Below, in pieces: positions 743-48,640 of a stretch of 64,000 nt of DNA (position 1 is the first letter of the stretch; each line of letters starts with the position of its first letter). The DNA is taken from contig OZ244782.1 in the NCBI GenBank assembly GCA_965219625.1, forward strand, positions 2,727,551 through 2,791,550, read 5' to 3'. Both the position numbers and the translations under genes were made by a program. A model generated the notes under the pieces. The model was not told where the DNA came from. It made no database searches and was given only the letters and a program-made list of their open reading frames with translations. The stretch is from Candidatus Multivoraceae bacterium. Its GTDB lineage: Bacteria > Acidobacteriota > Thermoanaerobaculia > Multivoradales > Multivoraceae.

Positions 743-826
743 TCCCTTATTCTGCAACGAACCGGAGGCTGGGTCGCGTGGCTGGCGGGTGTCGGTTCGG
801 GACGAGCCGTGTAGGCTCCGCGACCG

Positions 827-1708: not shown

Positions 1709-1782
1709 GTACCGAAGGTACCTCGAACGGGCGGTCCATCGTCCGACCGGGTTCGCCGCCACCCTTCGCTATCCTCTCCGGC

Positions 1783-2592: not shown

Positions 2593-2631
2593 GGCGCCGG
2601 TCGAACGTCGCGCGGCTTCCGAGCTCCGTGC

Positions 2632-3702: not shown

Positions 3703-3763
3703 GGCGGAACTCCAGGGCGAGAAGGGAGGGGGCCGTAGGTGGAGGCGGAGAGGGCAGGCCGGC

Positions 3764-7433: not shown

Positions 7434-8431
7434 ACCTCCTTCGCATCCAGAAACGGCATCATCCGGCGGAGCTTCCTGCCCACGTCCTCGATCGGGTGGT
7501 CGCGTTCCTGGGCGCGCCGTGGAGTGAAACGCGGACGGCCGTCCTTGTTCTCGGCGATCCAGTCGCGGGCGTACGTGCCGTCCTGAATGTCACTGAGGAC
7601 CTTGTCCATGACCGCCCGCACGTCCTTCGTGATGAGTTGATCCCCGGCGTGGTAGCCGCCGTGTTCGGCGGTGTCGGAGACGCTGTACCACATGTAGCCG
7701 AGGCCGCCTTCGTACATCAGGTCGACGATCAGCTTGAGTTCGTGCAGGCATTCGAAGTAGGCGACTTCGGGCTGATAGCCGGCGGCGACCAGCTTTTCGA
7801 AGCCGGCGCGAACGAGGGCCGAGGCGCCGCCGCAGAGCACGATCTGCTCGCCGAAGAGGTCGGTTTCGGTTTCTTCGGCGAACGTGGTCTCGATGACGCC
7901 CGCCCGCGTGCAGCCGATTCCCTTCGCGTAGGCGAGCGCGTCCGCCAGAGCGCCGCCCGTCGCGTCGTTCGCGACGGCGACGAGGCCCGGCGTGCCTGCG
8001 CCCTCGGTGAACACTTCGCGTACCCGGTGTCCTGGCGCCTTCGGCGCGACAAGCGACACATCGATGTTTGCCGGAGGCGTGATCTCGCCGTAGCGGATGT
8101 TGAATCCGTGCGCGAACATCAGCGTATCGCCGGCTTTCAGGTGCGGCGCGACGTCGCGCTCGTAGACCTCGGCCTGCACGGTGTCCGGCGCGAGAATGAT
8201 GATCGTCTGCGCGCGGGCGGCGGCGTCCGCGTTGCTCAGGACCTCGAGTCCGTCCGCTTCGGCCTTCGCCGCGCTGCCGCTCCCCTCGTGCAGGCCGACG
8301 ACGACGTCGACTCCGCTATCGCGCAGGTTCAGCGCATGGGCGTGGCCCTGGCTGCCGTAGCCGATGACGGCGACGGTCCGTCCGTCGAGCCGCGACAGAT
8401 CCGCATCGTCGTCATAGTAGAGATTCGCCAT
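7430..8431 (-). CDS. ilvC: Ketol-acid reductoisomerase
   Basis: 333 aa; [29 protein letters not shown]-binding motif. Confidence 0.9.
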
Positions 8432-8518
8432 CGATGTCGTCCTCGTTGCGTTCTCAGAGGTGCGTCGACCTGCTGATCCGGTTGGTATTCGGGGTGGTTT
8501 CGTGCCGCAGGTTGCTCG

Positions 8519-9064
8519 TCACAACACGTTCTTGCGCGCCGCCGAGCGGCTTCGATTCGGCTTGTAGCCCTCGTCCTTCAGGGTGTGGCTCCCGCGGCCC
8601 ATCGCGATGACGCCGGTACGTACCATCTCGATGATCCCGAACGGACGGATGAGCTCGGTGAAATGCTCGATCTTCTCCTCCTCGCCGGTGATCTCGACGA
8701 CCAGGGACTCGGCGGCGACGTCGATGATCCGCGCACGGAAGATGTCGCAGAGCTGGATGACTTCGCGTCGGTTCTCCGACGATGCTCTGACCTTGACGAG
8801 AGCCATGTCGCGAGCCACCGCCGGCTTCTTGTGGAGATGGTCGACATGGACGACCTCGACGAGCTTGTAGAGATTCGTAACCAGGCGGTCCGCCTCGGCG
8901 GTGTCCGACTCCATGACGACCGTCATGCGAGAGAGATTCTCCCGCTGCGTCCGACCGACCGACAGACTGTCGATATTGAAGCTCCGCCTTCGGAAGAGGT
9001 TCGCCACCCGGGCGAGAACGCCCGGGCGATTCTCGACCAGCGCGGCCAGGATGTGCTTCGCCAC
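8519..9064 (-). CDS. ilvN: Acetolactate synthase small (regulatory) subunit
   Basis: VAKHILAALVENRPGVLARVANLFRRRSFNIDSLSVG (ACT domain); GTG start at 9064, 20 nt after the ilvB stop; the track ORF is over-extended. Confidence 0.8.
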   Translation of the reverse strand: MAKHILAALVENRPGVLARVANLFRRRSFNIDSLSVGRTQRENLSRMTVVMESDTAEADRLVTNLYKLVEVVHVDHLHKKPAVARDMALVKVRASSENRREVIQLCDIFRARIIDVAAESLVVEITGEEEKIEHFTELIRPFGIIEMVRTGVIAMGRGSHTLKDEGYKPNRSRSAARKNVL

Positions 9065-9084
9065 AGCGGAATCTCCGTCTGCCG

Positions 9085-11037
9085 TCAGACTCCGAACCGC
9101 GAGCCGAGTTTGGCGTCGGCTGGCGCAGGAGGCGTCGGGGGCTGCTCGGCCCCCGCGGCGTCGGTGTCTGCGGAGGCTTCGGCCGCCTCCCGCTTGCGGC
9201 GTTGCTGCTCGTACTCTTCCGGTGTGGGACGCCGGATCATGTCGTCGAGGTCCGCGCCGGCCGGCACCATGGGATAGACGATCTCCTCTTTCTCGACGAC
9301 GAACTCGATGAGCGTCGGACCCTCGGTGCGTGCCCGCGACGACTCGACGGCGCGCTCGATCTCGCTGCGCTCGGTGACGCGGATGGCTGGGATGCCGAAT
9401 GCATCGGCCAGTTTGCAGAAGTCCGGGTTGACCATCGGCGTCGCGTTGTAGCGCTCCTCGTAGAAGAACTCCTGCCACTGCCGGACCATGCCCAGGAAGC
9501 CGTTGTTGATCACGGCGATGTGTACGTTGACCTGCTCCTGAACGGCGGTGGCGAGTTCCATCATCGTCATCTGAAATCCACCGTCGCCGACGATCGCCCA
9601 TACCTCCTCGTCGGGGCGCGCCATCTTCGCGCCAATCGCCGCGGGTACGCCGAAACCCATCGTCCCCAGGCCGCCGCTCGTGATCAGGCTGTGCGGACGA
9701 TCGTGCTGGTAGTACTGCGCCTCCCACATCTGGTGCTGGCCGACATCCGTGACGGTGACGGCGCCTCCTCCCGTGACCTCGAACAGATCGCGGATGACCT
9801 GGGCGCCGAGCAGCTTGCCCTCGGGCACTGCGGGATGCTGAGGCTCGTCCGCTGGCCGGACGATCTCGCGCTGCTCGGAGTCCGCCCGCCACTCGGCGAT
9901 CCGGTCGAGCCAGGACGGCGCGGGCTCGCGCTCGACCCGGCCGAGCAGCTGGCGCAGCACCTCGCGCAGGTCGCCGACGATGCCGACGTCAGTGGCGACG
10001 TTCTTGTTGATCTCGGACGGGTCGATGTCCACGTGGATCTTCCGCGAGGCCCTCGCGTAGGTGGCGAGATTGCCGGTGACCCGGTCGTCGAAGCGCATGC
10101 CGAGCGCAATCAGCAGATCGGCCTCCTGAATCGCGTGGTTCACCTCGGCGCCGCCGTGCATTCCCATCATTCCCAGGCACAGAGGGTGGTGCTCGGACAG
10201 CGCGCCCTTGCCGAGCAAGGTCAGCGCGACGGGGATCTGCGCTCGTTCGGCAAGCGCCTTCAGCTCGCGATTCGCGTTCGACATCGAGATGCCGTGTCCG
10301 GCGAGGATGATCGGCCGTTTCGACTCGCGAATCAGCTCGAGGGCGGCGTCGATCTGCCGGGCCCGCGCCGACCGCGGCGGCCGGTAGCCCGGCAGCATGA
10401 TCGGATCGGTGGGATACGCGAACTCCGCGGTCTGCATCTGAATGTCCTTCGGAATGTCGACGAGTACCGGACCCGGGCGCCCGGTGCGGGCGATGTGGAA
10501 GGCCTCGCGGATGACTTCGGGCAGTTCGTCGACGCTTGTCACGAGGTAGTTGTGCTTCGTGATCGGCAGAGTGATGCCGGTCACGTCCGTCTCCTGGAAG
10601 GCGTCGCTGCCGATCGCGCCGGTCGGTACCTGGCCGGTGATGCAGACGATCGGCGAGGAGTCCATCATCGCGGTGGCGATGCCGGTGACGAGGTTCGTAG
10701 CGCCCGGACCGCTCGTCGCGATCGCTACGCCAACCCGGCCGGTGGCGCGGGCGTAGCCGTCCGCCATGTGCGAAGCGCCCTGCTCGTGTCGGGTCAGCAC
10801 ATGGTGAATCTGCGGGTACTGCGTGAGCGCGTCGTAGGTGGGAAGGATCGCTCCGCCCGGGTAGCCGAACACGATGTCGATCCCCTCGCGGATCAGGCAC
10901 TCGCAGACGATCTCCGCGCCGGTCAGGATCTTCGGCTCGTCGGTCGTCCGTGCGCTCGCCTGCTCCGTCGCCCGCGCCTCGGCGCCTGCGTCGGCATTTG
11001 CGGTTGTCCTGCCAGTTGCCGTGTCTTCGGTCATCAT
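9085..11037 (-). CDS. ilvB: Acetolactate synthase large subunit (ThDP-dependent)
   Basis: 650 aa; GYPGGAILPTYDAL, ThDP-binding GDGGFQM...N; AGGAGG RBS 4 nt before the ATGATG start. Confidence 0.9.
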   Translation of the reverse strand: MMTEDTATGRTTANADAGAEARATEQASARTTDEPKILTGAEIVCECLIREGIDIVFGYPGGAILPTYDALTQYPQIHHVLTRHEQGASHMADGYARATGRVGVAIATSGPGATNLVTGIATAMMDSSPIVCITGQVPTGAIGSDAFQETDVTGITLPITKHNYLVTSVDELPEVIREAFHIARTGRPGPVLVDIPKDIQMQTAEFAYPTDPIMLPGYRPPRSARARQIDAALELIRESKRPIILAGHGISMSNANRELKALAERAQIPVALTLLGKGALSEHHPLCLGMMGMHGGAEVNHAIQEADLLIALGMRFDDRVTGNLATYARASRKIHVDIDPSEINKNVATDVGIVGDLREVLRQLLGRVEREPAPSWLDRIAEWRADSEQREIVRPADEPQHPAVPEGKLLGAQVIRDLFEVTGGGAVTVTDVGQHQMWEAQYYQHDRPHSLITSGGLGTMGFGVPAAIGAKMARPDEEVWAIVGDGGFQMTMMELATAVQEQVNVHIAVINNGFLGMVRQWQEFFYEERYNATPMVNPDFCKLADAFGIPAIRVTERSEIERAVESSRARTEGPTLIEFVVEKEEIVYPMVPAGADLDDMIRRPTPEEYEQQRRKREAAEASADTDAAGAEQPPTPPAPADAKLGSRFGV

Positions 11038-11058
11038 CGCCTCCTGTTCGCTTCGGAC

Positions 11059-12021
11059 CTAGCCTTCGGACGCAGCGGCGCTCTGCGTTCGAGCCAGTTG
11101 GGGTACGGGCGTGAGCCAGCCGTGCCGGTCGGGGAGACGCCCTTCGACCAGCCCGAAGAACTCCTCCTGCAGGCGGTGGGTGATGGGTCCTCGGCGGCCG
11201 CTGCCGACCTGGATGCGGTCGACCGATCGGACCGGACTCACCTCGGCGGCGGTGCCGGTCATGAACAACTCGTCCGCCACGTAGAGTTCCTCTCGGCTGA
11301 TCGGTCGGAAGTGGACATCGAACTGGAGATCCTGGGCGATGCGGATGACCGAGTCGCGGGTGATGCCGGCCAGGATCGAGCTGTAGAGCGGCGGAGTGAC
11401 GATGACGCCATCCTTGACGAGAAACAGGTTCTCGCCGGCGCCTTCGCAGACCAGACCGCGCTCGTCCAGCATGATTCCCTCGGCGAAGCCGTTGTCGCGG
11501 GCCTCGACGGAGACGAATTGGTTCGTCACGTATTGACCGCTGATCTTGCCGAGCGGCGCCGCGGTGTTCGGGTTGAAGCGCCGCCAGGAACTGACTGCCG
11601 CGTCGACGCCCTGCTCGATTGCCTCCTCGCCCAGATAGCGCCCCCAGCGGACGGCGAAGATGGCGAGTTTCACCGAGCAATCCGTCGGATTCAGGCCCAT
11701 GCTGTCTCCGCCGCGATAGACGAGCGGCCGGATGTAGCACGACTCGAGCTGGTTGCGGACGACGGCCTCGATGCACAGCTCGCTCACCTGGTCCTCGGTG
11801 AATCCGACGTCCATCCGCATGATCCGGCAACTGTCGAACAGCCGCCGGACGTGCGAACCGAGCCGGAAGACTGCGGTCGATTCGCCGGTGTCGTAGGCGC
11901 GGATGCCCTCGAAGACTCCGGAGCCGTACTGCAGGCTGTGCGTCGTCAGATGCACGTTCGCCTCGTCCCAAGGCTTCCACTGGTCGTCGATCCAGATCCA
12001 CTCTGATCGTTCGATGGTCAT
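11059..12021 (-). CDS. ilvE: Branched-chain amino-acid aminotransferase
   Basis: MTIERSEWIWIDDQWKPWDEANVHLTTHSLQYGSGVFEGIRAY (fold-type IV PLP); start at the internal ATG 12021. Confidence 0.85.
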   Translation of the reverse strand: MTIERSEWIWIDDQWKPWDEANVHLTTHSLQYGSGVFEGIRAYDTGESTAVFRLGSHVRRLFDSCRIMRMDVGFTEDQVSELCIEAVVRNQLESCYIRPLVYRGGDSMGLNPTDCSVKLAIFAVRWGRYLGEEAIEQGVDAAVSSWRRFNPNTAAPLGKISGQYVTNQFVSVEARDNGFAEGIMLDERGLVCEGAGENLFLVKDGVIVTPPLYSSILAGITRDSVIRIAQDLQFDVHFRPISREELYVADELFMTGTAAEVSPVRSVDRIQVGSGRRGPITHRLQEEFFGLVEGRLPDRHGWLTPVPQLARTQSAAASEG

Positions 12022-12057
12022 TCCGATTAACTCCAAGGGCCCGCAGGCCTGAGACAA

Positions 12058-12087
12058 AGAAGCCCCCAGGCGTTGCTGGGGGCTTCT
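12058..12087 (-). terminator. Intrinsic terminator / attenuator hairpin upstream of ilvE (12-bp perfect GC-rich stem, 6-nt loop, then UUUGUCUC on the minus strand)
   Basis: AGAAGCCCCCAG-CAACGC-CUGGGGGCUUCU then UUUGUCUC. It lies between the candidate leader ORF stop (12113) and the ilvE ATG (12021). The U-tract is on the minus strand only. Confidence 0.45.
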
Positions 12088-12112
12088 AGTCGCTCGCTGA
12101 CGGTGTTTGCGC

Positions 12113-12322
12113 CTAGTTGGCCCCCTGGACGCCAAGGACCAGAACCAGAAGCAGGACGAGGATGAGCAGGCCGGCGAGACGACCGGCGTCGCTGCTTCGA
12201 CCCGGCAGCGTCTCCGTGACGAGAGCCGCGTGCGACGCTGCTCTGTGCTCCCGCGCGCTCGTCCGCAACTGGGTCTTTCGCGAACTTCGGTACCGCAGCC
12301 TTGGCGCCGCCGAGCGTCTCAT
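12113..12322 (-). CDS. Candidate ilv-leu leader peptide with a C-terminal run of 11 consecutive Leu/Ile/Val codons (LLILVLLLVLV)
   Basis: Minus-strand ORF ...RLAGLLILVLLLVLVLGVQGAN*; the stop is 22 nt upstream of the terminator hairpin. The true start may be an internal GTG/CTG, so the functional leader is probably shorter than 69 aa. Confidence 0.35.
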   Translation of the reverse strand: MRRSAAPRLRYRSSRKTQLRTSAREHRAASHAALVTETLPGRSSDAGRLAGLLILVLLLVLVLGVQGAN

Positions 12323-12579
12323 CGTCCGGTTCGTTCGTTCTTTTTTGGGCGGGGATTCATCAGGCGACCTGCCGTTCGGCAGGTTCAGTCGCGAAAGCGT
12401 AGGAGACGCCCTGAGGGGCTGTCAAGTCGGCCAGCTGTGGAGACACGGGCGCAGGAACGACGTGTCGGCCGTCGGCGATCGCCAGGGCGCTCCGTCTTTC
12501 CGATCCGCAACGTCCCACAAGGACGGGAATCGCCGATATCATCGAGCGTTTACGCGCGCTCCGCGCCCCTGGGTCCCTG

Positions 12580-15500
12580 TTGAAGCTGTTTCCCCGTCTG
12601 GAGTTTCATCGAACCGGCGTCGGTCTGTTGGCGGATCCTCATGATCCGGAGCCCGGTTCGGCGGTTCATCTCGCGAACGTGGCGGGCTCGAAGCGGCCGT
12701 TGACGTTCTGCAGTTGTTCGGCCGGGAGGCGGAGCGGCTGCCGTCACCTGAAGGAGCTCGAGGAGCAGATTCGGGAGTTTCGGCGGGAAACGGGAACGAC
12801 CTGGTTCGATCTGTTCGGGCAAAGCGGCTGGTTTCGATTGGCGCAGACGCTCTTCCAGGAGAATCTGCCGGCGGCGGCGGAGTGCACCGTGTCATGGGAA
12901 GGCGCCGGAACGCCGATTCGGCTGTTTGCGCCGAACGGGGTCGAGGTGCTCGCGTACTCCGAGCAGTCGCCGGCGACGATTCGGTTCCTGGAGCGGATCG
13001 GCAAGCTGGCGCCGGGCATCACCGTCGACGATCGATCGGGGCTGATCGAGCGTCTGTCGACGTTCATGCGGACGCCGGAGGAGCAGCACCTGAACAAGGC
13101 CGGCCTGCAGACGAACCGGCAGTTCTTCGAAGGCAGCCTCTGGTGTCGGGTTGCGTACCATGCGTTGCGGGAATACGGAGATCTTCCGGTCGGCCGCGAT
13201 GGCGATGCTGCGCGGGGCCCGGTCCGCCTGCGGCCCTTGATCGAACGCGCAAGCGGTACGTTGTTCCTGGAACTCCGGGTAGCGCCGGCGCTCGAGCCGC
13301 GGCTGCGCATCGCCGTACCCCGGCGTCGTGCCGCCGAGACCCTCGCGCTCCTTGCCGCGACCGGGTGGGCTCAGGTCATCCCGTTGCCGGCGGCCGACGT
13401 GTTCGCCATCGGCCCGGACACTCGAATCGACGAGAAGATCAGGTTCGACGTGCTGCGGCTCGCCGCCGAGGGCGAAGAGCTCCTCGACGAGCCGGAGCGC
13501 GAGCGCTATCGGTACGGCGACCTGGCGTACATCGACGAGCTGGGCGTGCTCGTCCGCAGGGCGGAGCGGGACGACGATCCCTGGCGCGAACCGGCCGCGC
13601 TCGATCTCGAACCGGCTCGAATTCCCACGTTCAACGCGGAACCGTGCGCCGGAGAGCCGCAGGATCAACTCGATGAGAACCCGCAACCGAGCCTCGGCAT
13701 CCTGACGGAGTACGACTACATCGAGATCGAGCCCGAGCGTGACCCTCAGGCGGCCGGCGAAGGTTCGGCTGTCTCGGACCGCACGGCTCCGTCCGCGGGT
13801 GCCGACGAGAATGGCCTGCTGTCGATTCGCTTTGGATTCGGCGACGAGGAGGTGGCGCTCGACGAACTCCTCGCGGCGAAGCAGGCCGGGATGCCCTTCC
13901 TCGAGACCAGGTCGGGATGGATCGACCTGAACGCTCCGGCACTTCGCAACGTCGGCTCGCTGCCAGGACGGCAGGAGCTGGCCGCGCGTGCCGGACCGGT
14001 CGGCAACGGCGGTGCGCGCGTGCGGATGTCGTCGGCGGAGCTGCTGCGGCTTCAGGCCTCGAGCCAGGCCCCCATTCGGGTCGAGGGAGATGGCCGCAGC
14101 TCGGACTTTCTGCGCCGGTTCCTGAGTCTGCGGCCCGCCGATCCGCTGGTCGAGCCGGATGGATTGAAGAGCGTGCTCCGGCCCTATCAGAAGCTCGGCG
14201 TCGAATGGCTCAAGTTCCTTTACGAGAACGGGCTTGCGGGCCTGCTCTGCGACGACATGGGGCTCGGCAAGACGCATCAGGCAATGGCGCTGATGGTCAT
14301 TCTGCGTGAACAGCTTCGCATCGATCTGCCCTTTCTCGTCGTCTGCCCGCGCACGGTGATCAGCCATTGGCGGAACAAGCTGCGCGAGTACGCTCCAGCG
14401 CTCCATCCGGTGGACTACCACGGGCCGCAGCGCGACCTCGACGAATCCCTGGACCGGGGCGACGTCGTGCTGACGTCGTACGGCGTGCTGCGAAACGACG
14501 TCGAGCGGTTCGCGGATCGTCACTGGGGCTTGGCCGTGTTCGACGAAGTGCAGCAGATCAAGAACCGGAGCACCCAGGGCTACCGGGCCGCGGCGGCGAT
14601 CAACTCGCGGATGAAGTTGGGTCTCACCGGCACGCCGATCGAGAACTCGCTGGTCGAACTGAAGGGTCTGTTCGACCTCGTCCTGCCGGGCTATCTCGGG
14701 GGCGACGACAGCTATCTCGATCTGGTCGGCGGCAACGAACTCGACGCGGATTCCTGGTACGCGGTGAACCTGCGGCGGCTCACCTCTCCCTTCGTGTTGC
14801 GACGGGTGAAGACGGCGGTGCTCGACGAGTTGCCCGAGAAGATCGAGGACACGCGAACCTGTCGCCTGAGCGACGAGCAGCTGCAGATGTATCGGCAGAC
14901 GATCGAATCCCGTGGCCTCGCTCTGATGAAGACCCTCCGCTCGGAGCGCGGTTCCCTGCCCTACATCCACATCTTCGCGCTGCTGAATGCGCTGAAGCAG
15001 ATCTGCGATCATCCGGCGCTCGCCGTGAACGACCTCGACCGCTACGAGAACTACGAATCGGGGAAGTGGGACCTGTGCCGGGATCTGCTGGAAGAGAGTC
15101 TGGACAGCGGCCAGAAGGTCGTCGTGTTCACCCAGTACCTGGGCATGATCGGGATCCTCGAGCGGCATCTCTCACAGCTCGGCATCGACTTCGTCACGTT
15201 GACGGGTTCGACGCGCGAACGCGGGAGAGTCGTCGACCGGTTCAATCTGGACGCCGACTGTCGGGTGTTCCTTGGCAGTCTGAAGGCGGGCGGTACGGGC
15301 ATCGACCTGGTCGGCGGCTCGGTCGTCATCCACTACGACCGCTGGTGGAACGCGGCGCGCGAAGACCAGGCGACCGACCGCCTGCACCGGATCGGGCAGA
15401 AGCGGGCCGTCCACGTTTTCAAGCTGATCACCGAGGACACGATCGAGGAGCGGATTGCCGACATCATCGAGCGCAAGCGGCGGCTGATGGAGAGTGTGGT

Positions 15501-20103: not shown

Positions 20104-20107
<4 letters not shown>

Positions 20108-21057
20108 AGCTTCGCGAAGAGCCACGCCACGTAGACCCCGTAGGCTGCCGCGAGGACCGCGCCCCAGGTTCGTCCGATGCTCCGCCCGTGTCGCAACAGG
20201 TAGACGGCGAGGAACATGAGCAGGCTGAACAGGAGCATGACCGAGGCGTCCAGCCCCTCGGCGAGGAAGGTGGTTTCGAAGGGGCGTATGAGCACGGCGG
20301 CGGGAAGGACGAGCAGGATGTTGAACACGTTCGAGCCGATGATGTTCCCGAGCACCAGACCGTGCTCGCGCCGCGCGGCCGCGACCAGACAGCTGGCCAG
20401 CTCCGGCACGCTCGTGCCGAAGGCGACCACCGTCAAACCGATGACCCGCTCGCTGATGCCGAGTTCCTGGGCCAGCTCGACCGCGCCGGGAACCAGCAGT
20501 TCGTCGGCGCCGGCGTAGAGCAGCAGCAACCCGAAGAGGGTGCCGGCGACGGCTTTCGGCCCGTGGACGTTCTGGGATTCGGATTCGCCGACCTCGCCGG
20601 AGCGTGCGAGCACGACGAGAAAGTACGCCATCAACGCGAGGAGCACGACGCCCTCGAACCGGGCCAGGCGACCGAATGCGGTGAAGGTCAGAACGAGCAG
20701 CGACGTGGCGAGCATGAAGGGGAGCTCGCGACGAACCAGCCGGGTCGACTCGCGGCTGCCGTCGCCGACCCCGGGCCGGAGCGGGAAGAGCAGCGCGCAC
20801 ATGCCGAGGATCAGGCCGACGTTCGCCACGTTCGAGCCGACGACGTTCCCGTAAACCAGTCCCGGGGAGTCCCGCAGCGCGGCGCTGACGGCCGCGGCGA
20901 GTTCCGGCGCCGAGGTGCCGAAGGCGACGACCGTGAGTCCGACGACTGTCGGACTCACCCGAAGGAGCGCGGCGAGCCCGGTCACCGAGCGGACGAGGAT
21001 CTCGCCGCCGGCCCAGAGCACGGCAATCCCGAGGGCGATGAGGAGCAGAGAAGTCAA
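20104..21057 (-). CDS. CaCA-family cation/Ca2+ exchanger (YrbG-like)
   Basis: 317 aa, two internal repeats with [11 protein letters not shown] / [11 protein letters not shown] alpha-repeat signatures, ~10 TM segments. Confidence 0.8.
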
Positions 21058-22722: not shown

Positions 22723-23748
22723 TTACGGTCTCGGGTCCTTCGCGGCCGCTGCCGTTTCTTCCGGCGGCGGACAGGAAGTGGAGAGCGTCCATCCACTCGG
22801 GGCGGGGAGGACTCCGACGACGAAACAGCCGGACCGGACCGCCTCTGCGGCGCTGCCCTTCAGGCCCCTCCAGAGCCTGGTGAACTCACCGTGGCCCAGC
22901 GTGTCCGCCAGATCGACGAAACCGTCTTGCCAGACGCCCCAGGCTCTTGCTCTTGCGTCGTCCAAGGTCTCGGGAAAGTCCGCCGCGAAGTCCACGGGAT
23001 AGAAGTCCGACCGGCCGTAGGTCTTCAGGCGGTCGCCCCCCTCAACCTGGACCACCCGGCTCATGCTCATCACGGTCAGAGCCCTGGCGTCTCGATCTGC
23101 CGGCAGGTCCGCGGCAATCAGCAGACGGTCCCCGACCTCCGGGTAGTACTCCTGATGAGTCGCGGGCGGCGCGCAGAAGACGCGGCCGCCGGCGACGAAC
23201 CGGGCGTAGGGAAGGATGGCGTACTCCACGAAGTACGGATACTTCCGGGACGGATAGAGGTGCTCGGCGTCGTCCAGAAGAACGAGCGTATTCGGCCGAC
23301 CCTCCTGGTCGAAGCCCGGAACGAAGCCAGTCACCGTCCCCAGAACGACGGCATCCGAGGCCGCCGTCCAACCCCGAAAGTCGCCGGGAGGAAACACGGT
23401 CCGACGCTTGAGGCGGAGCCTCTCACGGATGGCTGCCGCTTCCTCGGGGCTGATCTCGCAGCCGAGCTCCGTCCAGGGCGTGTCCTCGGTGACCGACTCG
23501 AATCTCCTTGGCGCCGGCCGCTCGAGCTGCTCGGCCAAGGCGCCTGCCAGCGGACCGATGCGCTCTTCGCTCTGAACCGTCCCATCCGGCCTGAAGGCGT
23601 ACGAAGCAGCGACCCAGTACGGCCCGTCCGACTCGCGGTCCGGGTGCGGGTGCAGGAGCCTCGGCGGTTCGGGCTGACCTTGACCGGCCGCGGGCCCTCC
23701 GGCAATGAGGGCAGCCAAGACGGCGAAACGAACACTTCGCTTCTTCAT
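22723..23748 (-). CDS. Secreted protein of unknown function, copy 1 of a duplicated gene
   Basis: Signal peptide MKKRSVRFAVLAALIAGGPAAGQG; 341 aa with 4 Cys; ~98% identical to the 25628..26653 product; the track ORF over-extends upstream. Confidence 0.6.
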   Translation of the reverse strand: MKKRSVRFAVLAALIAGGPAAGQGQPEPPRLLHPHPDRESDGPYWVAASYAFRPDGTVQSEERIGPLAGALAEQLERPAPRRFESVTEDTPWTELGCEISPEEAAAIRERLRLKRRTVFPPGDFRGWTAASDAVVLGTVTGFVPGFDQEGRPNTLVLLDDAEHLYPSRKYPYFVEYAILPYARFVAGGRVFCAPPATHQEYYPEVGDRLLIAADLPADRDARALTVMSMSRVVQVEGGDRLKTYGRSDFYPVDFAADFPETLDDARARAWGVWQDGFVDLADTLGHGEFTRLWRGLKGSAAEAVRSGCFVVGVLPAPSGWTLSTSCPPPEETAAAAKDPRP

Positions 23749-23765
23749 GGTGTCTCCGTGATCCC
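22732..23765. repeat. Direct repeat copy A (~1.03 kb), ~99% identical to 25637..26670
   Basis: Long near-identical stretches by inspection (e.g. gggtccttcgcggccgctgccgtttcttccggcggcg...); identity decays in the signal-peptide and upstream region. Confidence 0.85.
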
Positions 23766-24013
23766 GTCGATGTCGGAACGGTCCCCTACCTGAACCGGAG
23801 ATCGCCCGGATTCGCCTTCGTCCTACTGCTCGCTCTAATCGCCTTTCGTCGACTGCTTTGCGGCGCTGCCGGCACCTGCTTTCTCGGGGTTTCGGTTTTG
23901 CGAAGGCCTCTGCGGCGGCGGCTTGATCTTCCGAGGCATGGCAGGTTGCCCGCTGAGGTGCCGCAACGTCGCTGTCGGCTTCCTGGGATTCTGGGGCCGT
24001 TCGCGTTCGGCGC

Positions 24014-24508
24014 TCACGCCAAGCCCTCTGCTTGGTCGAGAGCCTTCCGGAGCAGCCTCGGACGTTCTCGTTGTCCGACGGTCTCACGGTCGATGTGGCG
24101 CCCGTTCTCCCGGATGCGGGCCAACTCCTCGTGGACCGAGCGATGATCGGCCTCGCCCTTCTCCATCTCGACCCAGAGATCGTCGAGCCGATCATGAAGC
24201 TCGCCCCAGGCCAAGGCGCTGTTCTTCAAGGCCACGAACGCCTCCCCGTACTTGAGGAGACCGACAAGGATGCCGGACACGCAAGCCACCACCGCGGGCC
24301 ATAGAGGACCGATTCCCAGCCCGCCCAGCGTGGCCGTCAGAGTGGCGGACGAGAACAGAGCGGTGAACAAGCCGAGACACCGCTCAGCGCGGCGGTACCT
24401 GAATGCCAAGCGGTTGAAGTAGATCGAGCGGGTGTGAGCCGCGATCCGCTCTTCCCACACCCGACAGCGGAGCTCCTCGGACGGCGCACTCCTCCCGACG
24501 GTGGTCAT
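24014..24508 (-). CDS. Small 2-TM membrane protein with SLATT-like architecture (N-terminal amphipathic helix, two TM helices, C-terminal helical tail)
   Basis: MTTVGRSAPSEELRCRVWEERIAAHTRSIYFNRLAFRYRRAERCLGLFTALFSSATLTATLGG...PLWPAVVACVSGILVGLLKYGEAFVALKNSALAWGELHDRL...; start at the internal ATG 24508. Confidence 0.4.
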   Translation of the reverse strand: MTTVGRSAPSEELRCRVWEERIAAHTRSIYFNRLAFRYRRAERCLGLFTALFSSATLTATLGGLGIGPLWPAVVACVSGILVGLLKYGEAFVALKNSALAWGELHDRLDDLWVEMEKGEADHRSVHEELARIRENGRHIDRETVGQRERPRLLRKALDQAEGLA

Positions 24509-24902
24509 CGCGGAGATGTTAGCCGAGTCGGAGTGACCCGCTGCTCGGTGACGCCCCGATTCAAGCGACCGACGACTCCCCGGAAGGCGACCGCCAGCTC
24601 CAGAGTGGCCCTGGCAGGGTGCGGACGCCTGCACGCGACTCGCGCTCAGGCTTCTCGCCGCAGCGGGCCCTCAAGAGGCGCAGGCCGGGGCCCGCCCGGA
24701 GTTGTGCCCAGAACGACCGCGGGATGAAACACGGTCTGACGCAGCAGCCGCATGAACTCTGAGGTTGCCCCGGTTTCGTCGACGCTAGGTCCTTGGAGTA
24801 AGGAAGTGTCCACTAAACCGAGCCAGCGTCGGTTCTCCCACTACTCACGGGATGGCCGTCTCGTCTCGCACGTTGGCAGAAAAGGAACGGAAGCGGTTCC
24901 CC

Positions 24903-25631
24903 TCAGTAAGAGCAGGTGAGCGTGTAGGCTTGCTTCTTGGGATCCCATGTGCCTTCGCACTTCAGTTCCTCTTCCGTCTCCTCGCAGTTATCTGGATCTT
25001 CCGTGCAGCGACTGACCGGGTCGGTGCCGCGATTGGGGTTCGATCCACCGCCCGAATTGCCGCCGCCGGGTTTGATTCCCTTGTCACGGTTGATCTTCTC
25101 CTGCTTGAATCTCTGAACCGCCGTGCAGTTCACGGCGCTGACGTGATTGGCCAGGGGCTTGGATGGATCGCCCGTCATCACGGTCGTCGGACAACCCGGT
25201 CCGTCGTGGCCAAGTCCCAGGCTGTGGCCTGCCTCGTGGAGAAACAGGTTCGGCAGCGGGTCGCTGCAACCAGGCGTGCCGCTCGGAGCCAGGTAGATTG
25301 TCCTCGGCGGGCCATAGTTGCCTGGGGCGTCTATGTAGCCACATCCGCCCGTTGGGCTTGCCTGCTGCAAGACGGTCCACGTCTTCGCGCCGCCCGCGCC
25401 TATCGATAAGGCAGGGGAGCCGGCGCAGGCGTTCCATTTGGCGACGGCGCCGGCGAACCAACCGGGCGTTTGGCCGCTGGACCACTTGTAGGACATGCTC
25501 TTTTCTGAGTAAGCCGTATCGTCCCAGAACGGGTTGCCAGAAAGCGTACGCGTGCAGTTTGCTTGTCCAGCAGCGTCAGTAGCTCCTGCGAACAAAGCAA
25601 CCAGGACGACAGCCGCGACCCGACTACTCAT
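24903..25631 (-). CDS. Secreted metzincin-type zinc metalloprotease (HEXXHXXGXXH) with a Cys-rich C-terminal tail
   Basis: Signal peptide MSSRVAAVVLVALFAGATDAAGQ; HEAGHSLGLGHD zinc-binding motif plus a downstream Met (TVMTG); its ATG overlaps the upstream gene stop (ATGA). Confidence 0.7.
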   Translation of the reverse strand: MSSRVAAVVLVALFAGATDAAGQANCTRTLSGNPFWDDTAYSEKSMSYKWSSGQTPGWFAGAVAKWNACAGSPALSIGAGGAKTWTVLQQASPTGGCGYIDAPGNYGPPRTIYLAPSGTPGCSDPLPNLFLHEAGHSLGLGHDGPGCPTTVMTGDPSKPLANHVSAVNCTAVQRFKQEKINRDKGIKPGGGNSGGGSNPNRGTDPVSRCTEDPDNCEETEEELKCEGTWDPKKQAYTLTCSY

Positions 25632-26653
25632 GATGCCGGGTCCTTCGCGGCCGCTGCCGTTTCTTCCGGCGGCGAACAGGAAGTGGAGAGCGTCCATCCA
25701 CTCGGGGCGGGGAGGACTCCGACGACGAAACAGCCGGACCGGACCGCCTCTGCGGCGCTGCCCTTCAGGCCCCTCCAGAGCTTGGTGAACTCACCGTGGC
25801 CCAGCGTGTCCGCCAGATCGACGAAACCGTCTTGCCAGACGCCCCAGGCTCTTGCTCTTGCGTCGTCCAAGGTCTCGGGAAAGTCCGCCGCGAAGTCCAC
25901 GGGATAGAAGTCCGACCGGCCGTAGGTCTTCAGGCGGTCGCCCCCCTCAACCTGGACCACCCGGCTCATGCTCATCACGGTCAGAGCCCTGGCGTCTCGA
26001 TCTGCCGGCAGGTCCGCGGCAATCAGCAGACGGTCCCCGACCTCCGGGTAGTACTCCTGATGAGTCGCGGGCGGCGCGCAGAAGACGCGGCCGCCGGCGA
26101 CGAACCGGGCGTAGGGAAGGATGGCGTACTCCACGAAGTACGGATACTTCCGGGACGGATAGAGGTGCTCGGCGTCGTCCAGAAGAACGAGCGTATTCGG
26201 CCGACCCTCCTGGTCGAAGCCCGGAACGAAGCCAGTCACCGTCCCCAGAACGACGGCATCCGAGGCCGCCGTCCAACCCCGAAAGTCGCCGGGAGGAAAC
26301 ACGGTCCGACGCTTGAGGCGGAGCATCTCACGGATGGCTGCCGCTTCCTCGGGGCTGATCTCGCAGCCCAGCTCCGTCCAGGGCGTGTCCTCGGTGACCG
26401 ACTCGAATCTCCTTGGCGCCGGCCGCTCGAGCTGCTCGGCCAAGGCGCGTGCCAGCGGACCGATGCGCTCTTCGCTCTGAACCGTCCCATCCGGCCTGAA
26501 GGCGTACGAAGCAGCGACCCAGTACGGCCCGTCCGACTCGCGGTCCGGGTGCGGGTGCAGGAGTCTTGGCGGTTCGGGCTGGCCTTGACCGGCCGCGGGC
26601 CCTCCGGCAATGAGGGCAGCCAAGACGGCGAAACCAACGTCTCGTCTCTTCAT
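25628..26653 (-). CDS. Secreted protein of unknown function, copy 2, translationally coupled to the metalloprotease
   Basis: MKRRDVGFAVLAALIAGGPAAGQG signal peptide; 341 aa; the stop overlaps the protease ATG. Confidence 0.6.
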   Translation of the reverse strand: MKRRDVGFAVLAALIAGGPAAGQGQPEPPRLLHPHPDRESDGPYWVAASYAFRPDGTVQSEERIGPLARALAEQLERPAPRRFESVTEDTPWTELGCEISPEEAAAIREMLRLKRRTVFPPGDFRGWTAASDAVVLGTVTGFVPGFDQEGRPNTLVLLDDAEHLYPSRKYPYFVEYAILPYARFVAGGRVFCAPPATHQEYYPEVGDRLLIAADLPADRDARALTVMSMSRVVQVEGGDRLKTYGRSDFYPVDFAADFPETLDDARARAWGVWQDGFVDLADTLGHGEFTKLWRGLKGSAAEAVRSGCFVVGVLPAPSGWTLSTSCSPPEETAAAAKDPAS

Positions 26654-26670
26654 GGCGTCTCCTTGATAGT
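25637..26670. repeat. Direct repeat copy B, ~99% identical to 22732..23765
   Basis: Same as copy A; offset 2905 bp. Confidence 0.85.
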
Positions 26671-37985: not shown

Positions 37986-40900
37986 CTACCGGAAGTCGTG
38001 GCTCGGGATCCGCTCCAGGCGGTCGATGGGCCAGAACTTGTCCGCCTTGACGGATAGCGAACCGTCTTTCTTCTGCAGGACGCCCTCGACGATCAGGCCG
38101 GAGGAGGAGACGATCGTGCGGCGGTGTTTCTTGAACTCGTCCGGCATGACGATGGCCTGGCTCATCCCCGTCTCGTCCTCCAGGGTCAGGAACAGGAGGC
38201 CGCGGGCGGTGCCCGGGCGCTGGCGGACGATGACGGAACCGGCGGTGCGCACGCGGCGTCCGGCGGGAGACCTGGGGAGCTGGGCGGCGGGGACGACGTT
38301 TCGGCGGTCAAGCCCCCGGCGGTAGTACTCCATCGGGTGAGGGCCGGTGGTGATCGAGGCGAGGCGCAAGTCGGCGGCCGTCTCTTCCATCTGCGTCATC
38401 TCTTCGAGCGGCGAGGGAGAGGCGGTCGAAAGATCCGCGAACAGCGGGCCCTTCGGCTTCTCGACCTGAGCCGCCTGCCACAGGGCGGCGCGTCGTCCGA
38501 GATTCCCGGGCGCTCGATGAGCGTTGTGGGAGAAGCCGAAGGTTTGCTGTACGGCCTGCCGCCCGGCGTCGCCGCTCTCGCCCAGCCCGCCAAGCGCCCC
38601 GATGGACGCCAACGCAGTGAGTTCGTTTCGCCGCAACCGACAGCGTTCGGCCAGGTCCTCGATGGAGCGGAACCGTCGCGTCGCCTGCTCGGTTTCGATC
38701 CGTTCCGCCGCTTCGCGCCGCATTCCCTTGACGTAGCGCAACCCGAGGCGAATCGCGCCCGGCGGGGTCGGCTCGCCGGCCAGGGTGTTCTCGTCGGCGT
38801 CCGCCGGCCGGTCCTGCCAGCGGCACCGGACCCCCGATTCGTTCACGTCGATGGGCAGCACCGCGCTGCCCGCGCGCTGCGCTTCGCGGACCAATGTCGC
38901 CGGATGGTAGAAGCCCATCGGCCAGGCGTTCAGGAGCGACAGGAAGAAGGCGGTCGGGTGGTGGCGCTTCAAGTAGGCGCTGGCATAGGCGATCAGGGCG
39001 AAGCTGGCGGAGTGCGACTCGGGGAAGCCGTAGAGAGCGAACGAGGTGATCGCCTTGACGATCTGTTCCTGAGCAGGGCCCGTGATGTTCCGCTCGTTCA
39101 TGCCGGAACGAAGCCGGTCCTCGATCTGCTGCATCCGCTCGACGGAGCGTTTGAAGCCCATTGCGCGCCGTAACTCCTCCGCCTCGCCGCCGGAGAAGCC
39201 GGCCGCGACCATGGCGATCTTCAGGATCTGTTCCTGGAAGATCGGCACGCCGAGAGTTCGGCGCAGGATCGGCTCAAGCAGCGGGTGGGGGTAGGTGACG
39301 TCCTCGCGGCCGACCCGGCGCTCGAAGAACGGGTGGGCCATGCGGCCGACGATCGGCCCGGGGCGGATGATCGCGATCTGGATGACCAGGTCGTAGAACT
39401 TGTATGGCTTGTGGCGCGGCAGGGACGCCATCTGCGCCCGACTCTCGATCTGGAAGACGCCGACCGTGTCGGCGCGGCAGATCATCTCGTAGGTTGCCGG
39501 GTCGTCCGGCGGCAGGTGGGCCAGGTCGATCTGCTTGCCTTCGTGCCGACGGATCAGGGGCGCCGCCTCCTCCAGCGCGTTCAGCATGCCGAGGCCGAGC
39601 AGATCGACCTTGATGAGTCCCAGATCGGCGCAGTCGTCCTTGTCCCATTGGACGATGACCCGGTTCTCCATCGCCGCCGGTTCGAGCGGCACGATCTCGT
39701 CGAGCCGCCCGGCGCAGAGCACCATGCCGCCCGAATGCTGGCCCAGATGGCGGGGGTGGTTCTGGAGCTGCCGCCACAACCGGACGAAGAGCTGGATGCG
39801 CCGATCGTGGGGATCGAACCCGAGTTCCGTGAGCTCCTCGTCCATCTCCTTGCTGTCGCCGCGGGAGAGGTCGTAGTGCCAGTGGCCGAGCCCCTTCGCC
39901 AGGCGGTCGACCTGAACCTTGGAGCAGCCCAGCGCCTTCGCCGCCTCGCGCGCGGCCATGCGGTCGCGGTAGGTGATCACGTTCGCGGTCATCGCCGCGC
40001 CGTGCCGGCCGTAGCGCCCGTAGACGTACTGGATGACCTTCTCGCGCTTCACGCCGGACGGCAGGTCGATGTCGATGTCCGGCCACTCGCCGCGCTCCTC
40101 GGACAGGAAGCGCTCGAACAGCAGGTCCATCTTCACCGGGTCGACCGCAGTGATCGAGAGCGCGTAGCAGACGGCGGAGTTGGCGGCGGAACCGCGTCCC
40201 TGGGCCAGGATCCGCTCCTCCTTGCAGAAGCGGACGATGTCCCAGACGATCAGGAAGTAGCCGGCGAGATCGAGCTTCTCGATCAGCGCGAGTTCCTTCT
40301 CGAGTTGCGCGCCGGCCTTGGCGGTGAGTGGCCGGAAGCGTTCCTGGGCCCCTTGCCAGGTCCGTTCGCGGAGATGGGAGATCGCCGTTTCGCCAGCGGG
40401 AACCGGGTAGTCCGGGAAGCGGTAGCCGAGGTCGGCGAGCGTGAAGTCGAGTTCGCAGGCCAGTTCGTGCGCGGCGTGCACCGCGTGCGGCAGATCGGCG
40501 AACAGCCGGTGCATCTCCTCCGGGCTTCTCAGGCGCCGCTGGCGCTCGCGGGCGAGGCGGGCGCCGGCGGCGTCGACCGTCACATGGTGTCGAATCGCGG
40601 TCATCAGATCGAAGAGCGGTTTGTCGCGGGCTGTGGCGTAACGCACGCCGCCGGTGGCGACGACGGGCACGCCGAGCTGCTGCGCGATGCGGACCAACGC
40701 CTGGTTGCGGTGCTCTTCGGCGCGGATGCCGTGGCGCGCGAGTTCCACGTGCAGACGGCCGGGGAAGATGGCGTGCAGACGTTCGAGCTGCCGCCCGGCC
40801 GCCTCCAGCCCTTCCCGCGCGAGTGCTCGGCCAACGGGGTCGGCTTCGGCGCCGGCCAGACAGTGGAGTCCGTCCGCGTGTTCCTTGAGCAGAGCCCAGT

Positions 40901-41489
40901 TGATCCGTGCCTCGCCCTTGGGACGGTTGAGCGCTCCGGCGGTCAACAGGCGGCAGAGGTTGCGATATCCGCGACGGTTGCGCACCAGCAGATGAACGCG
41001 GGTCTCCTCGTCGTCCAGGGTTGGCCGCTCCTCGCGCCGACGCGAGGCAGCCGACGCTTGCGGCCGGTCGATGACCGCTTCGGCGCCCACCAGCGCCCGA
41101 ATTCCCGCTTCTCGCGCCGCCTTGTAGAAGCGCGGCGCGCCGGAGACTCCGTTCCGGTCGAGCAGGGCGACTGCCTCAAGCCCCAGGGCCGCCGCCCGCG
41201 CGACGAGGTCCTCGGGTTGGGACGAGGCGCGCAGAAAGGAGAACGACGACGCGGCGTGGAGTTCGGCGTAGGGCGGAGACTTCTGCCGGCGCTTCGGCGG
41301 CGGCTTGAACTCGCGCCGCCGCAGCCGTTCCTTGACCGCTCCCGGCGCGGCGTAGCCGGGGTTCGGCTCGCCTCGGGCGTCGAGCAGCCCGTTGTCGCCG
41401 CGGTTGGCGCGGCCGCTGCCCTTGCCGACGGCGCCGGACAGCCCCATGTTGCGCGCTGGCACGCTGATCTTGGGCGGCTTGCGAGCCAT
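37986..41489 (-). CDS. dnaE2: Error-prone DNA polymerase III alpha-like DnaE2 (ImuC)
   Basis: ...PPYAELHAASSFSFLRASSQPEDLV (PHP domain) followed by a Pol III alpha core; the 1309-aa track ORF has a spurious Arg/Pro-rich N-terminus. Start placed at the internal ATG 41489 (MARKPP), possibly later. Confidence 0.85.
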   Translation of the reverse strand: MARKPPKISVPARNMGLSGAVGKGSGRANRGDNGLLDARGEPNPGYAAPGAVKERLRRREFKPPPKRRQKSPPYAELHAASSFSFLRASSQPEDLVARAAALGLEAVALLDRNGVSGAPRFYKAAREAGIRALVGAEAVIDRPQASAASRRREERPTLDDEETRVHLLVRNRRGYRNLCRLLTAGALNRPKGEARINWALLKEHADGLHCLAGAEADPVGRALAREGLEAAGRQLERLHAIFPGRLHVELARHGIRAEEHRNQALVRIAQQLGVPVVATGGVRYATARDKPLFDLMTAIRHHVTVDAAGARLARERQRRLRSPEEMHRLFADLPHAVHAAHELACELDFTLADLGYRFPDYPVPAGETAISHLRERTWQGAQERFRPLTAKAGAQLEKELALIEKLDLAGYFLIVWDIVRFCKEERILAQGRGSAANSAVCYALSITAVDPVKMDLLFERFLSEERGEWPDIDIDLPSGVKREKVIQYVYGRYGRHGAAMTANVITYRDRMAAREAAKALGCSKVQVDRLAKGLGHWHYDLSRGDSKEMDEELTELGFDPHDRRIQLFVRLWRQLQNHPRHLGQHSGGMVLCAGRLDEIVPLEPAAMENRVIVQWDKDDCADLGLIKVDLLGLGMLNALEEAAPLIRRHEGKQIDLAHLPPDDPATYEMICRADTVGVFQIESRAQMASLPRHKPYKFYDLVIQIAIIRPGPIVGRMAHPFFERRVGREDVTYPHPLLEPILRRTLGVPIFQEQILKIAMVAAGFSGGEAEELRRAMGFKRSVERMQQIEDRLRSGMNERNITGPAQEQIVKAITSFALYGFPESHSASFALIAYASAYLKRHHPTAFFLSLLNAWPMGFYHPATLVREAQRAGSAVLPIDVNESGVRCRWQDRPADADENTLAGEPTPPGAIRLGLRYVKGMRREAAERIETEQATRRFRSIEDLAERCRLRRNELTALASIGALGGLGESGDAGRQAVQQTFGFSHNAHRAPGNLGRRAALWQAAQVEKPKGPLFADLSTASPSPLEEMTQMEETAADLRLASITTGPHPMEYYRRGLDRRNVVPAAQLPRSPAGRRVRTAGSVIVRQRPGTARGLLFLTLEDETGMSQAIVMPDEFKKHRRTIVSSSGLIVEGVLQKKDGSLSVKADKFWPIDRLERIPSHDFR

Positions 41490-41562
41490 CCGATAAGCGT
41501 AAATCAGGCGGCAATAAGTGCGCAAGAGCTCACGCTGTCTCCGGCCCCCCTTCCGCGGGCGG

Positions 41563-48618: not shown

Positions 48619-48640
48619 GCAGGCGATGCGGGTTCTTCGT

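Follow-up and report, generated by a model that had tools for sequence, protein, structure and literature searches.

The window analysed here, 64,000 nucleotides of a Candidatus Multivoraceae genome (Acidobacteriota, class Thermoanaerobaculia; contig OZ244782.1, positions 2,727,551 to 2,791,550), contains what appears to be a two-gene operon for a secreted 341-residue protein with a predicted beta-barrel core (hereafter the barrel protein) and a secreted 242-residue mini-metzincin, together with a second, near-identical copy of the barrel gene. We read this locus, with about even confidence, as a predicted metzincin and its cognate inhibitor or latency partner with a TIMP-fold core, plus orphan copies of the partner. 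It is the best of the readings considered, since the pairing of the two genes recurs across genomes down to 24%–28% identity and the core of the partner is predicted to be a TIMP/NTR-type barrel. The same two lines of evidence, the second from a structural model, give the best support to one of the two proposals of an earlier note on this DNA, that of a protease with paired inhibitor or chaperone genes. The locus defines a barrel family for which there is no Pfam or NCBIfam model, coupled, with clear support from comparative genomics, to an equally unannotated family of mini-metzincins that lack a prodomain. The genes in question are:

25628..26653, minus strand: copy 2 of the barrel protein gene (cognate copy, directly upstream of the metzincin; open reading frame (ORF) list)
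24903..25631, minus strand: 242-residue secreted mini-metzincin (ORF list, motif and profile searches)
25628..25631, minus strand: ATGA overlap of the copy 2 stop codon (TGA) with the metzincin start codon (ATG), read from the sequence (GCA TCA TGA / ATG AGT AGT...)
22723..23748, minus strand: copy 1 of the barrel protein gene (orphan copy, without a metzincin downstream; ORF list)

A mini-metzincin coupled to the barrel gene

As the earlier note had described, copy 2 ends in an ATGA overlap, visible in the sequence, with the gene of a secreted HEXXHXXGXXH metalloprotease (motif HEAGHSLGLGH), and both barrel copies, the protease and the small membrane protein encoded between them are co-directional, all on the minus strand. 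An AAGGA Shine–Dalgarno-like motif lies ~10 nt upstream of the metzincin start, within the end of copy 2. Judged by the overlap, copy 2 and the metzincin are translationally coupled, and a similar start/stop overlap or abutment is found at the related loci L014, L023, L030, and L010.

The protease has a signal peptide, after which the mature chain is predicted to begin near QANCTRTL, the zinc motif HEAGHSLGLGHD at residues 132–143 (~25203–25238), and the Met-turn methionine Met152 (TTVMTG) at 25176–25178. Residues H132, E133, H136, G139, and M152 are invariant in eight homologues, while the third zinc ligand is either H or D, and the family thus carries the HEXXHXXGXX(H/D) motif and the conserved Met-turn of the metzincin clan. 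Matches to the Pfam families Reprolysin_3/5, Peptidase_M10, and M7 all stay below the gathering cutoffs. Searching the PDB sequences with a profile of the family retrieved the serralysin-type PrtC (3.5e-5), adamalysins, MMP-8, and snapalysin (3e-3). In the snapalysin alignment, profile positions 48–151 match residues 11–108 of the 132-residue chain, beginning ~25 residues past the signal peptide. As this alignment covers nearly the whole mature chain from that point on, the sequence leaves no room for a prodomain.

The catalytic domain is thus similar in size to that of snapalysin (M7), and the distant L023 metzincin even carries a snapalysin-type HEXXHXXGXXD motif. The matches are weak, however, and the present family differs from snapalysin and other minimal bacterial metzincins in lacking a prodomain and in having a Gly-rich linker and a four-Cys acidic tail that are unique to it. 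In the window, the C-terminal part (24903–25030) consists of this linker followed by an acidic tail of ~40 residues with four invariant cysteines, ending in TCSY; the protein has 10 cysteines in total. The Gly-linker and a four-Cys tail ending in C-x-Y or C-x-F are shared by the metzincins of L009, L010, L014, L023, and L026, including the distant homologues. No family or fold was assigned to this tail, which might serve as a sorting signal, a binding knot, or an autoinhibitory element.

Linkage of barrel and metzincin genes across genomes

A word-indexed protein search retrieved five relatives of the metzincin, on contigs that, going by their matching lengths, also carry barrel genes. For a census of this linkage, we combined tblastn and hidden Markov model (HMM) scans, which yielded 28 distinct barrel-family genes with readable downstream DNA, a set that covers the neighbourhoods of a handful of the 140 remote relatives described below. 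An intact homologous mini-metzincin lies directly downstream of seven of these genes (window copy 2, L009, L010, L014, L015, L023, and L026). In two further cases, the downstream metzincin runs into the contig end (L006) or carries a frameshift (L012). Decayed metzincin remnants lie behind four genes (L003, L004, L007, and L016), and one gene, at L030, precedes a probably truncated metzincin beside an integrase. The earlier note had proposed surveying the neighbourhood of homologues, and had named a complete lack of metzincins beside them as a result that would speak against its interpretation; such pairing recurs in 13–14 of the 28 loci. It persists at 24%–28% partner identity (L023 and L026), including the architecture of the metzincin, and at L023 also the start/stop overlap.

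Every metzincin of the present type that we found sits directly behind a barrel gene, whereas the converse is not true. With the metzincins always behind a barrel gene and the barrel genes often alone, the protease depends on its partner and the partner is independent of the protease.

Several arrangements depart from the simple pair. At L015, two barrel genes stand in tandem before one metzincin. In the region L020/L021 (positions 1–13023) of a Candidatus Multivorans genome, the pair is located amid genes for AbiEii, a NikA/MobC-like protein, a phage-type integrase, and many small ORFs, and the region looks like an integrative element; integrase fragments also adjoin the barrel–metzincin pair at L030 and L022. 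L027 (201–5885) has three remote barrel paralogues within 6 kb, none of them with a metzincin, and clustered paralogue expansion thus appears to be common throughout the wider barrel family. In L024/L025 (4001–6392), a remote member carries a TonB_C domain at its C-terminus, and the next gene encodes a secreted ankyrin-repeat protein; a second barrel-family gene lies 2.3 kb away on the opposite strand. In L002 (9550–11065), the gene of a 121-residue Zincin_1 protein (PF06262), a member of a different zincin-like family, directly precedes the orphan barrel gene P0008. A metagenome scan for loci with a single barrel alignment returned two redundant loci, neither with a metzincin.

The barrel protein family and its predicted fold

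By hydrophobicity and cysteine positions, the barrel protein has a Sec-type signal peptide that ends near residue 22–24 and lacks a lipobox cysteine. The four cysteines without any recognizable motif that had been noted from the sequence are at positions 97, 192, 308, and 326, with none before residue 97, and the protein has no match in Pfam, NCBIfam, or PADLOC. We found 23 close homologues. Among GTDB species-representative genomes, these occur almost only in metagenome-assembled genomes of Thermoanaerobaculia (Acidobacteriota), where the taxonomy is known, with 2–4 paralogues per genome, and their sources suggest an origin in invertebrate-associated metagenomes. An exhaustive profile search extended the family to 140 relatives at E-values up to 1e-3, most of which match the central profile positions 120–225; the family comprises ~140 clusters at 50% identity. 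No Pfam family covers the barrel region in any of 67 sampled relatives, and searches against viral and mobile sets (PHROGs, phages, and plasmids) were negative.

Cys97 and Cys192 are the only near-invariant cysteines across the wider family and, as a near-invariant pair in an exported protein, probably form a disulfide bond. Cys308 and Cys326, located in a C-terminal hairpin, are missing from many relatives. The features of copy 2 that matter for the fold are:

25919..26296 (approximate), minus strand: beta-barrel core (residues ~120–245), from the secondary structure of the AlphaFold2 model
26363–26365, minus strand: Cys97 codon, near-invariant in the family
26078–26080, minus strand: Cys192 codon, near-invariant in the family

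An AlphaFold2 model built with 18 close sequences was mediocre, with a predicted local distance difference test score (pLDDT) of 66.8, whereas the model built with 129 sequences was confident (pLDDT 87.8, predicted template modelling score 0.84). The latter model comprises a folded N-terminal region (~25–118, with pLDDT >90 for residues 30–110), the beta-barrel (from residue ~120–130 to ~245), a helical bundle (262–303), and the Cys308–Cys326 beta-hairpin (308–326). In Foldseek searches of the PDB with both models, the top ~16–21 matches were exclusively TIMP-1/-2/-3 and NTR modules (agrin NtA and PCOLCE), with best E-values of 7e-4 and 2.8e-3, probabilities up to 1.00, and ~120 aligned columns at ~4 Å. 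Template modelling scores normalized to isolated N-TIMP chains were 0.50–0.58. Generic oligonucleotide/oligosaccharide-binding (OB) fold proteins reached probabilities of at most 0.2 with very large root-mean-square deviations. With the top matches of two models all belonging to TIMPs and NTR modules, we predict for the core a TIMP/NTR-type OB barrel with the five-stranded fold of N-TIMP. We infer that this core is the region aligned to the TIMPs, as it is the only beta-rich stretch of ~120 residues in the model. A fold search of the viral BFVD models gave no meaningful match.

The earlier note had proposed HMM searches and structure prediction for this protein, asking whether it resembles a protease inhibitor, and the outcome is the absence of any HMM match and a model that resembles TIMP-type protease inhibitors. 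The best register in an hhalign comparison with TIMPs is not significant; it aligns query residues 125–183 with TIMP-2 residues 9–69, pairing 'RGWTAASDAVVLGTV' with 'QQAFCNADVVIRAKA', and is in accordance with the fold match.

Relation to known metzincin–partner systems

To our knowledge, few endogenous protein inhibitors of bacterial metzincins have been described, namely AprI/Inh, the potempins, and possibly Tim of Listeria. AprI/Inh proteins of Pseudomonas, Serratia, and Erwinia are operon-encoded, Sec-exported eight-stranded barrel inhibitors of the cell's own serralysin and are thought to protect the periplasm. The barrel protein resembles them as an operon-encoded, Sec-exported beta-barrel partner of its own predicted metzincin. 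However, AprI/Inh have another barrel topology, insert an N-terminal trunk into the active site, and act on a type I-exported, much larger protease, and neither a sequence match nor a top-ranking structural match to AprI/Inh was found for the barrel protein.

The closest functional analogue is the potempin/KLIKK system of Tannerella forsythia, in which lipoprotein inhibitors with an OB fold or an eight-stranded barrel are encoded immediately upstream of, and overlapping, the peptidase genes (PMC9890683). Potempins are outer-membrane lipoproteins of 98–132 residues; PotA, PotC, and PotD have a five-stranded OB fold, and the target of PotA is the MMP-like metzincin karilysin (PMC9890683). Orphan ORFs and a paralogue pair with 82% identity, PotB1/B2, are likewise known from T. 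forsythia (PMC9890683). The present locus shares with this system an exported barrel partner encoded upstream, with its stop codon overlapping or abutting the peptidase start, within the 5 bp that mark a potempin-type operon, as well as orphans and near-identical paralogues. The two T. forsythia genes are co-transcribed (PMC9890683). Unlike the potempins, the barrel protein has ~320 residues in its mature form, lacks a lipobox, and contains an additional N-terminal region and a C-terminal helical bundle and hairpin; potempins belong to Bacteroidota, whereas the barrel family belongs to Acidobacteriota. No potempin was retrieved in the profile search of the PDB sequences or among the top 50 Foldseek matches.

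By analogy of the partner, the closest reported bacterial case is Mtz–Tim of Listeria monocytogenes, a secreted metzincin and an exported TIMP-like lipoprotein encoded in the order mtz then tim, with Mtz cleaving Tim (PMC8235301). Its authors were aware in 2021 of no earlier TIMP-fold protein from bacteria in the literature (PMC8235301). Both systems combine an adjacent secreted HEXXHXXGXXH/D metzincin with an exported protein of predicted TIMP fold that lacks TIMP sequence similarity, and both are conserved as a unit. They also share the position of the TIMP-like domain behind an N-terminal extension and a frequent location near mobile-element genes (L020/L021, L030, and L022 in the present case). 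In contrast, the gene order is reversed and Tim is a lipoprotein, and we set the barrel family apart from Mtz/Tim on the basis of these descriptions. An indirect check for Mtz–Tim relatives gave no tblastn match in 50,697 phage records and no PHROG match.

Metazoan TIMPs and NTR modules (TIMP-1 to -4, agrin NtA, and the PCOLCE NTR) are the best structural matches to the barrel core, and TIMPs inhibit metzincins. Mature TIMPs begin with Cys1 (CxC), which chelates the catalytic zinc through its alpha-amino and carbonyl groups. The order of a helix, an SD-x-V strand, a loop with a cysteine, and a LIAG-like strand may also correspond to that of N-TIMP, where the hhalign register is weak. The differences comprise the lack of significant sequence similarity and of Cys1-x-Cys3, two conserved cysteines in or beside the barrel (only Cys97 and Cys192 are conserved there) instead of the six that form three disulfides in the TIMP N-domain, and different flanking domains. 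The bacterial family gives no sign of a recent transfer from animals.

Taken together, the barrel family is outside any named family, as it differs from the potempins, and probably from Mtz–Tim, in sequence, from both in size, domains, lipidation, and phylum, and from the TIMPs in sequence and cysteine pattern. If the partner is an inhibitor, it would be a third independent OB-barrel solution for metzincin control, and the locus would offer a tractable protease–inhibitor pair from symbiont-type Acidobacteriota, possibly relevant to interactions with the host matrix.

Proposed function and alternative explanations

If the barrel protein is an inhibitor or latency partner, it would be translated ahead of the metzincin and in matched amounts, exported by the Sec system as a mature protein of ~320 residues, and would bind the prodomain-less metzincin either in the periplasm or extracellularly, where it might act as a tight-binding inhibitor or latency factor that replaces the missing prodomain until release, and the envelope of the producer would thereby be shielded from the protease. 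The binding face would probably be the end of the barrel with the conserved loops PGFD and VFC192 and the tethered Cys97 segment; the conserved barrel cysteines come in the same order as those of the TIMP Cys1–Cys70 ridge, to which they may be equivalent. Orphan copies, including copy 1, might provide an extra dose of inhibitor or neutralize related proteases of neighbouring cells.

Several observations weigh against this interpretation. The TIMP likeness exists at the fold level only: hhalign comparisons with TIMP-1 to -4 (the TIMP-2 sequence verified against PDB 1br9) gave probabilities below 1%, and neither Pfam nor a profile search of the PDB sequences yielded a TIMP or NTR match for the barrel family. 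A free N-terminal cysteine, the hallmark of the TIMP mechanism, is absent, the first cysteine being residue 97, and with its additional domains the protein is roughly threefold larger than potempins or N-TIMP. Moreover, 14 of the 28 barrel genes have no metzincin downstream, and with half of the family lacking an adjacent protease, the barrel protein may serve an independent function. Finally, the TIMP-like protein of Listeria is a substrate rather than an established inhibitor of its protease (PMC8235301).

This last precedent is the starting point for a different explanation, which we consider unlikely, namely that the metzincin cleaves the barrel protein, for instance by removing its N-terminal region of ~95 residues, and that the TIMP-like fragment is the active product, with the cell envelope, neighbours, or host metalloproteases as possible targets. 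In Listeria, Mtz shortens Tim by ~50 residues at the N-terminus, and the phenotype depends on both proteins (PMC8235301). A long N-terminal region precedes the barrel in the present protein as well, and a cut before Cys97 would generate a TIMP-like N-terminal cysteine. The orphan copies and the intact barrel genes beside decayed metzincins (L003, L004, and L007) also fit a protein with its own activity. However, the N-terminal region is well conserved and predicted with high confidence to be folded, unlike a disposable linker, the orphan copies would need another protease for their processing, and the gene order is opposite to that in Listeria.

A variant in which cleavage and inhibition are combined appears distinctly unlikely to us. 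According to it, the barrel proteins would be genuine bacterial equivalents of the TIMPs, made as pro-inhibitors that gain an N-terminal cysteine on cleavage before Cys97, a step that the coupled metzincin might carry out. The Cys97–Cys192 disulfide would then take the position of TIMP Cys1–Cys70 and form a TIMP-style zinc-chelating wedge. An action of such bacterial inhibitors on host enzymes has a parallel in PotA, which inhibits MMP-12. If this variant were true, the orphans of what may be sponge- and coral-associated Acidobacteriota could neutralize host matrix metalloproteases or the metzincins of neighbouring symbionts.

It is improbable, in our view, that the barrel protein serves as a foldase or secretion chaperone, i.e. 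as an in-trans prodomain that folds or exports the disulfide-rich metzincin. The tight translational coupling of the two genes, a protease with 10 cysteines and no prodomain, and the fact that this protease is never seen without its partner are in line with such a role, yet it would leave no obvious use for an orphan copy or for a copy beside a decayed protease gene, and the top structural matches are inhibitors and binding modules, not foldases.

We assign a similarly low probability to the second proposal of the earlier note, a secreted toxin/immunity-like cassette, for which nothing specific emerged. Here, the metzincin would be an antibacterial or anti-host weapon and the barrel proteins immunity factors, with orphans amassed in variable, island-like regions beside conflict genes, of which the SLATT-like gene would be one. 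The partner genes are indeed multi-copy with orphans, some protease genes are decayed, several loci adjoin integrases, MobC, AbiEii, methyltransferases, or AAA_21 ATPases, the G+C content of the cassette is slightly below that of its flanks, and a SLATT-like gene is a neighbour. On the other hand, polymorphic toxin systems do not typically place the immunity gene upstream or equip both proteins with Sec signal peptides, no domain for a secretion system or for toxin delivery was found, PADLOC gave no match, and the SLATT linkage is not conserved. Mechanistically, this explanation also overlaps largely with that of an inhibitor.

Origin of the two barrel gene copies

The earlier note had reported two gene copies with ~99% identity over ~1.03 kb and had suggested aligning 22.7–23.8 kb with 25.6–26.7 kb. 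An in-register comparison at an offset of 2905 revealed a gap-free direct repeat of 1031 bp with 16 mismatches, so that the repeat stands while its identity is slightly lower, at 98.4%:

22732..23763, no strand: direct repeat copy A; extends from 9 nt ahead of the stop codon to a point 15 nt 5' of the start codon and takes in the GGAG ribosome-binding site
25637..26668, no strand: direct repeat copy B, at an offset of 2905 from copy A

On either side of the repeat, the similarity is at background level, and a repeat of such length and identity cannot have arisen by chance. The copies encode proteins with 97.4% identity, each with 341 residues and four cysteines. They had been described as diverging only in the signal-peptide and promoter region. 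The differences do cluster in the first seven codons and in the sequence more than ~15 nt ahead of the start codon, but the copies also diverge over the final 9 nt of the coding sequence, giving the C-terminus ...DPRP in copy 1 and ...DPAS in copy 2. The DPAS ending is common to four close homologues, and copy 1 thus departs from it. Thirteen codons differ between the copies (leaving out a synonymous stop-codon change): three in the signal peptide, the last two codons, four nonsynonymous ones in the mature part, and four synonymous ones. There is no sign of positive selection between the copies; the last two codons aside, seven nonsynonymous differences (three of them in the signal peptide) compare with four synonymous ones. 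The mismatches cluster towards the 5' end, and the centre of the repeat contains >400 bp of unbroken identity.

At the 5' end, the homology reaches no more than 15 nt beyond the coding sequence, and at the 3' end it stops 9 nt short of the end of the coding sequence. The origin of copy 1 therefore fits either gene conversion, with copy 2 overwriting an older paralogue, or a very recent, coding-sequence-sized duplicative insertion; the proposal of a recent duplication or gene conversion thus agrees with a coding-sequence-sized repeat with 16 mismatches in 1031 bp. We ruled out a simple tandem segmental duplication, since the homology is limited to the coding sequence within 15 nt and copy 1 lacks any metzincin. 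The protease is also not 'flanked' by paired copies in the sense first proposed, as copy 1 is an orphan, like about half of the family members elsewhere. Near-identical duplication in itself is an ordinary event for a family so rich in paralogues. The 97.4% identity of the window pair is exceptional compared with the 58%–64% of within-genome barrel paralogues elsewhere. A third barrel-family ORF (P0023), truncated to 191 residues and 63% identical, is located outside the window on the same 3.7-Mb contig.

An assembly artefact, which had been named as a possible undoing of the duplication, was rejected because each copy has unique flanks, the 16 differences are fixed, and a second contig from an ENA metagenome assembly (L001, 118 kb) contains the same 21 kb with both copies at 100% identity. 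That the duplicate is nevertheless artefactual, or that two secreted proteins without a functional link merely lie side by side, is highly improbable: L001 may come from the same population as the window, given their complete identity, yet 1.9 kb of unique sequence separates the copies, the arrangement is the same in contigs of 118 kb and 3.7 Mb, and adjacency of barrel and metzincin genes recurs across genomes to ~25% identity, which is unexpected of independent genes.

Neighbouring genes and other features of the window

The cassette is flanked by genes for FdhD and a molybdopterin oxidoreductase upstream, and by those for glutamate dehydrogenase, an Na/Ca exchanger, and GcvP downstream; 171 bp separate copy 1 from the glutamate dehydrogenase gene. 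Its G+C content is 0.63–0.67, compared with 0.68–0.72 in the flanks. We also considered whether other barrel loci share the FdhD...gdh synteny, which was found at none of the related loci. Between the metzincin and copy 1 lies one further gene:

24014..24508 (start possibly up to 24634, 206 residues), minus strand: 164-residue SLATT-like protein with two transmembrane segments (ORF list, NCBIfam, hydrophobicity)

This gene had been described as encoding a SLATT-like protein with two transmembrane segments. The protein does contain two neighbouring hydrophobic segments (residues 44–62 and ~66–88, Kyte–Doolittle), as expected of the SLATT layout of a two-transmembrane hairpin with a helical region behind it, but its assignment to SLATT is sub-threshold only, with an NCBIfam SLATT_4 match (E-value 9e-8) of 32 bits under a cutoff of 55 bits, and nothing in Pfam or PADLOC. 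A word-indexed protein search found four homologues. One of them (L031) is located with an MmeI-type fragment and a Fic gene, and no barrel or metzincin gene; conversely, no SLATT-like homologue occurs at any other barrel/metzincin locus. Signalling or defence partners such as SMODS, SLOG, or TIR are present neither in the window neighbourhood nor at L031. The suggestion that this gene is a member of the cassette was therefore rejected, on account of the absence of linkage at other barrel/metzincin loci and the unrelated L031 context. It belongs to a variable region and is unrelated to the adjacent pair.

Farther along the window, the stretch at 43–51 kb is suggested to be rich in accessory and conflict genes. 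A HEPN domain protein (43275–43697, minus strand) overlaps a nucleotidyltransferase gene (43694–44029, minus strand) in a HEPN-MNT toxin–antitoxin layout (Pfam), followed by a PIN-domain protein (45134–45589, minus strand) just under the Pfam cutoff, and a Fic_N+Fic protein (49718–50878, plus strand) with a possible winged-helix C-terminus, for which an HTH_24 match fell narrowly short of the Pfam cutoff. A DnaE-type Pol III alpha subunit with PHP, DNA_pol3_alpha, finger, HHH, and OB domains (37986–41915, minus strand) is encoded ~5 kb from an IMS/ImuB-like Y-family polymerase protein (47104–48804, minus strand), and these two genes may represent a split imuB–dnaE2 mutagenesis cassette. Finally, internal direct repeats with a spacing of 501 bp and 73%–76% identity were found at 20306–20946 inside the Na/Ca exchanger gene (20104–21057), which most likely reflect the internal two-fold domain duplication of this transporter family.

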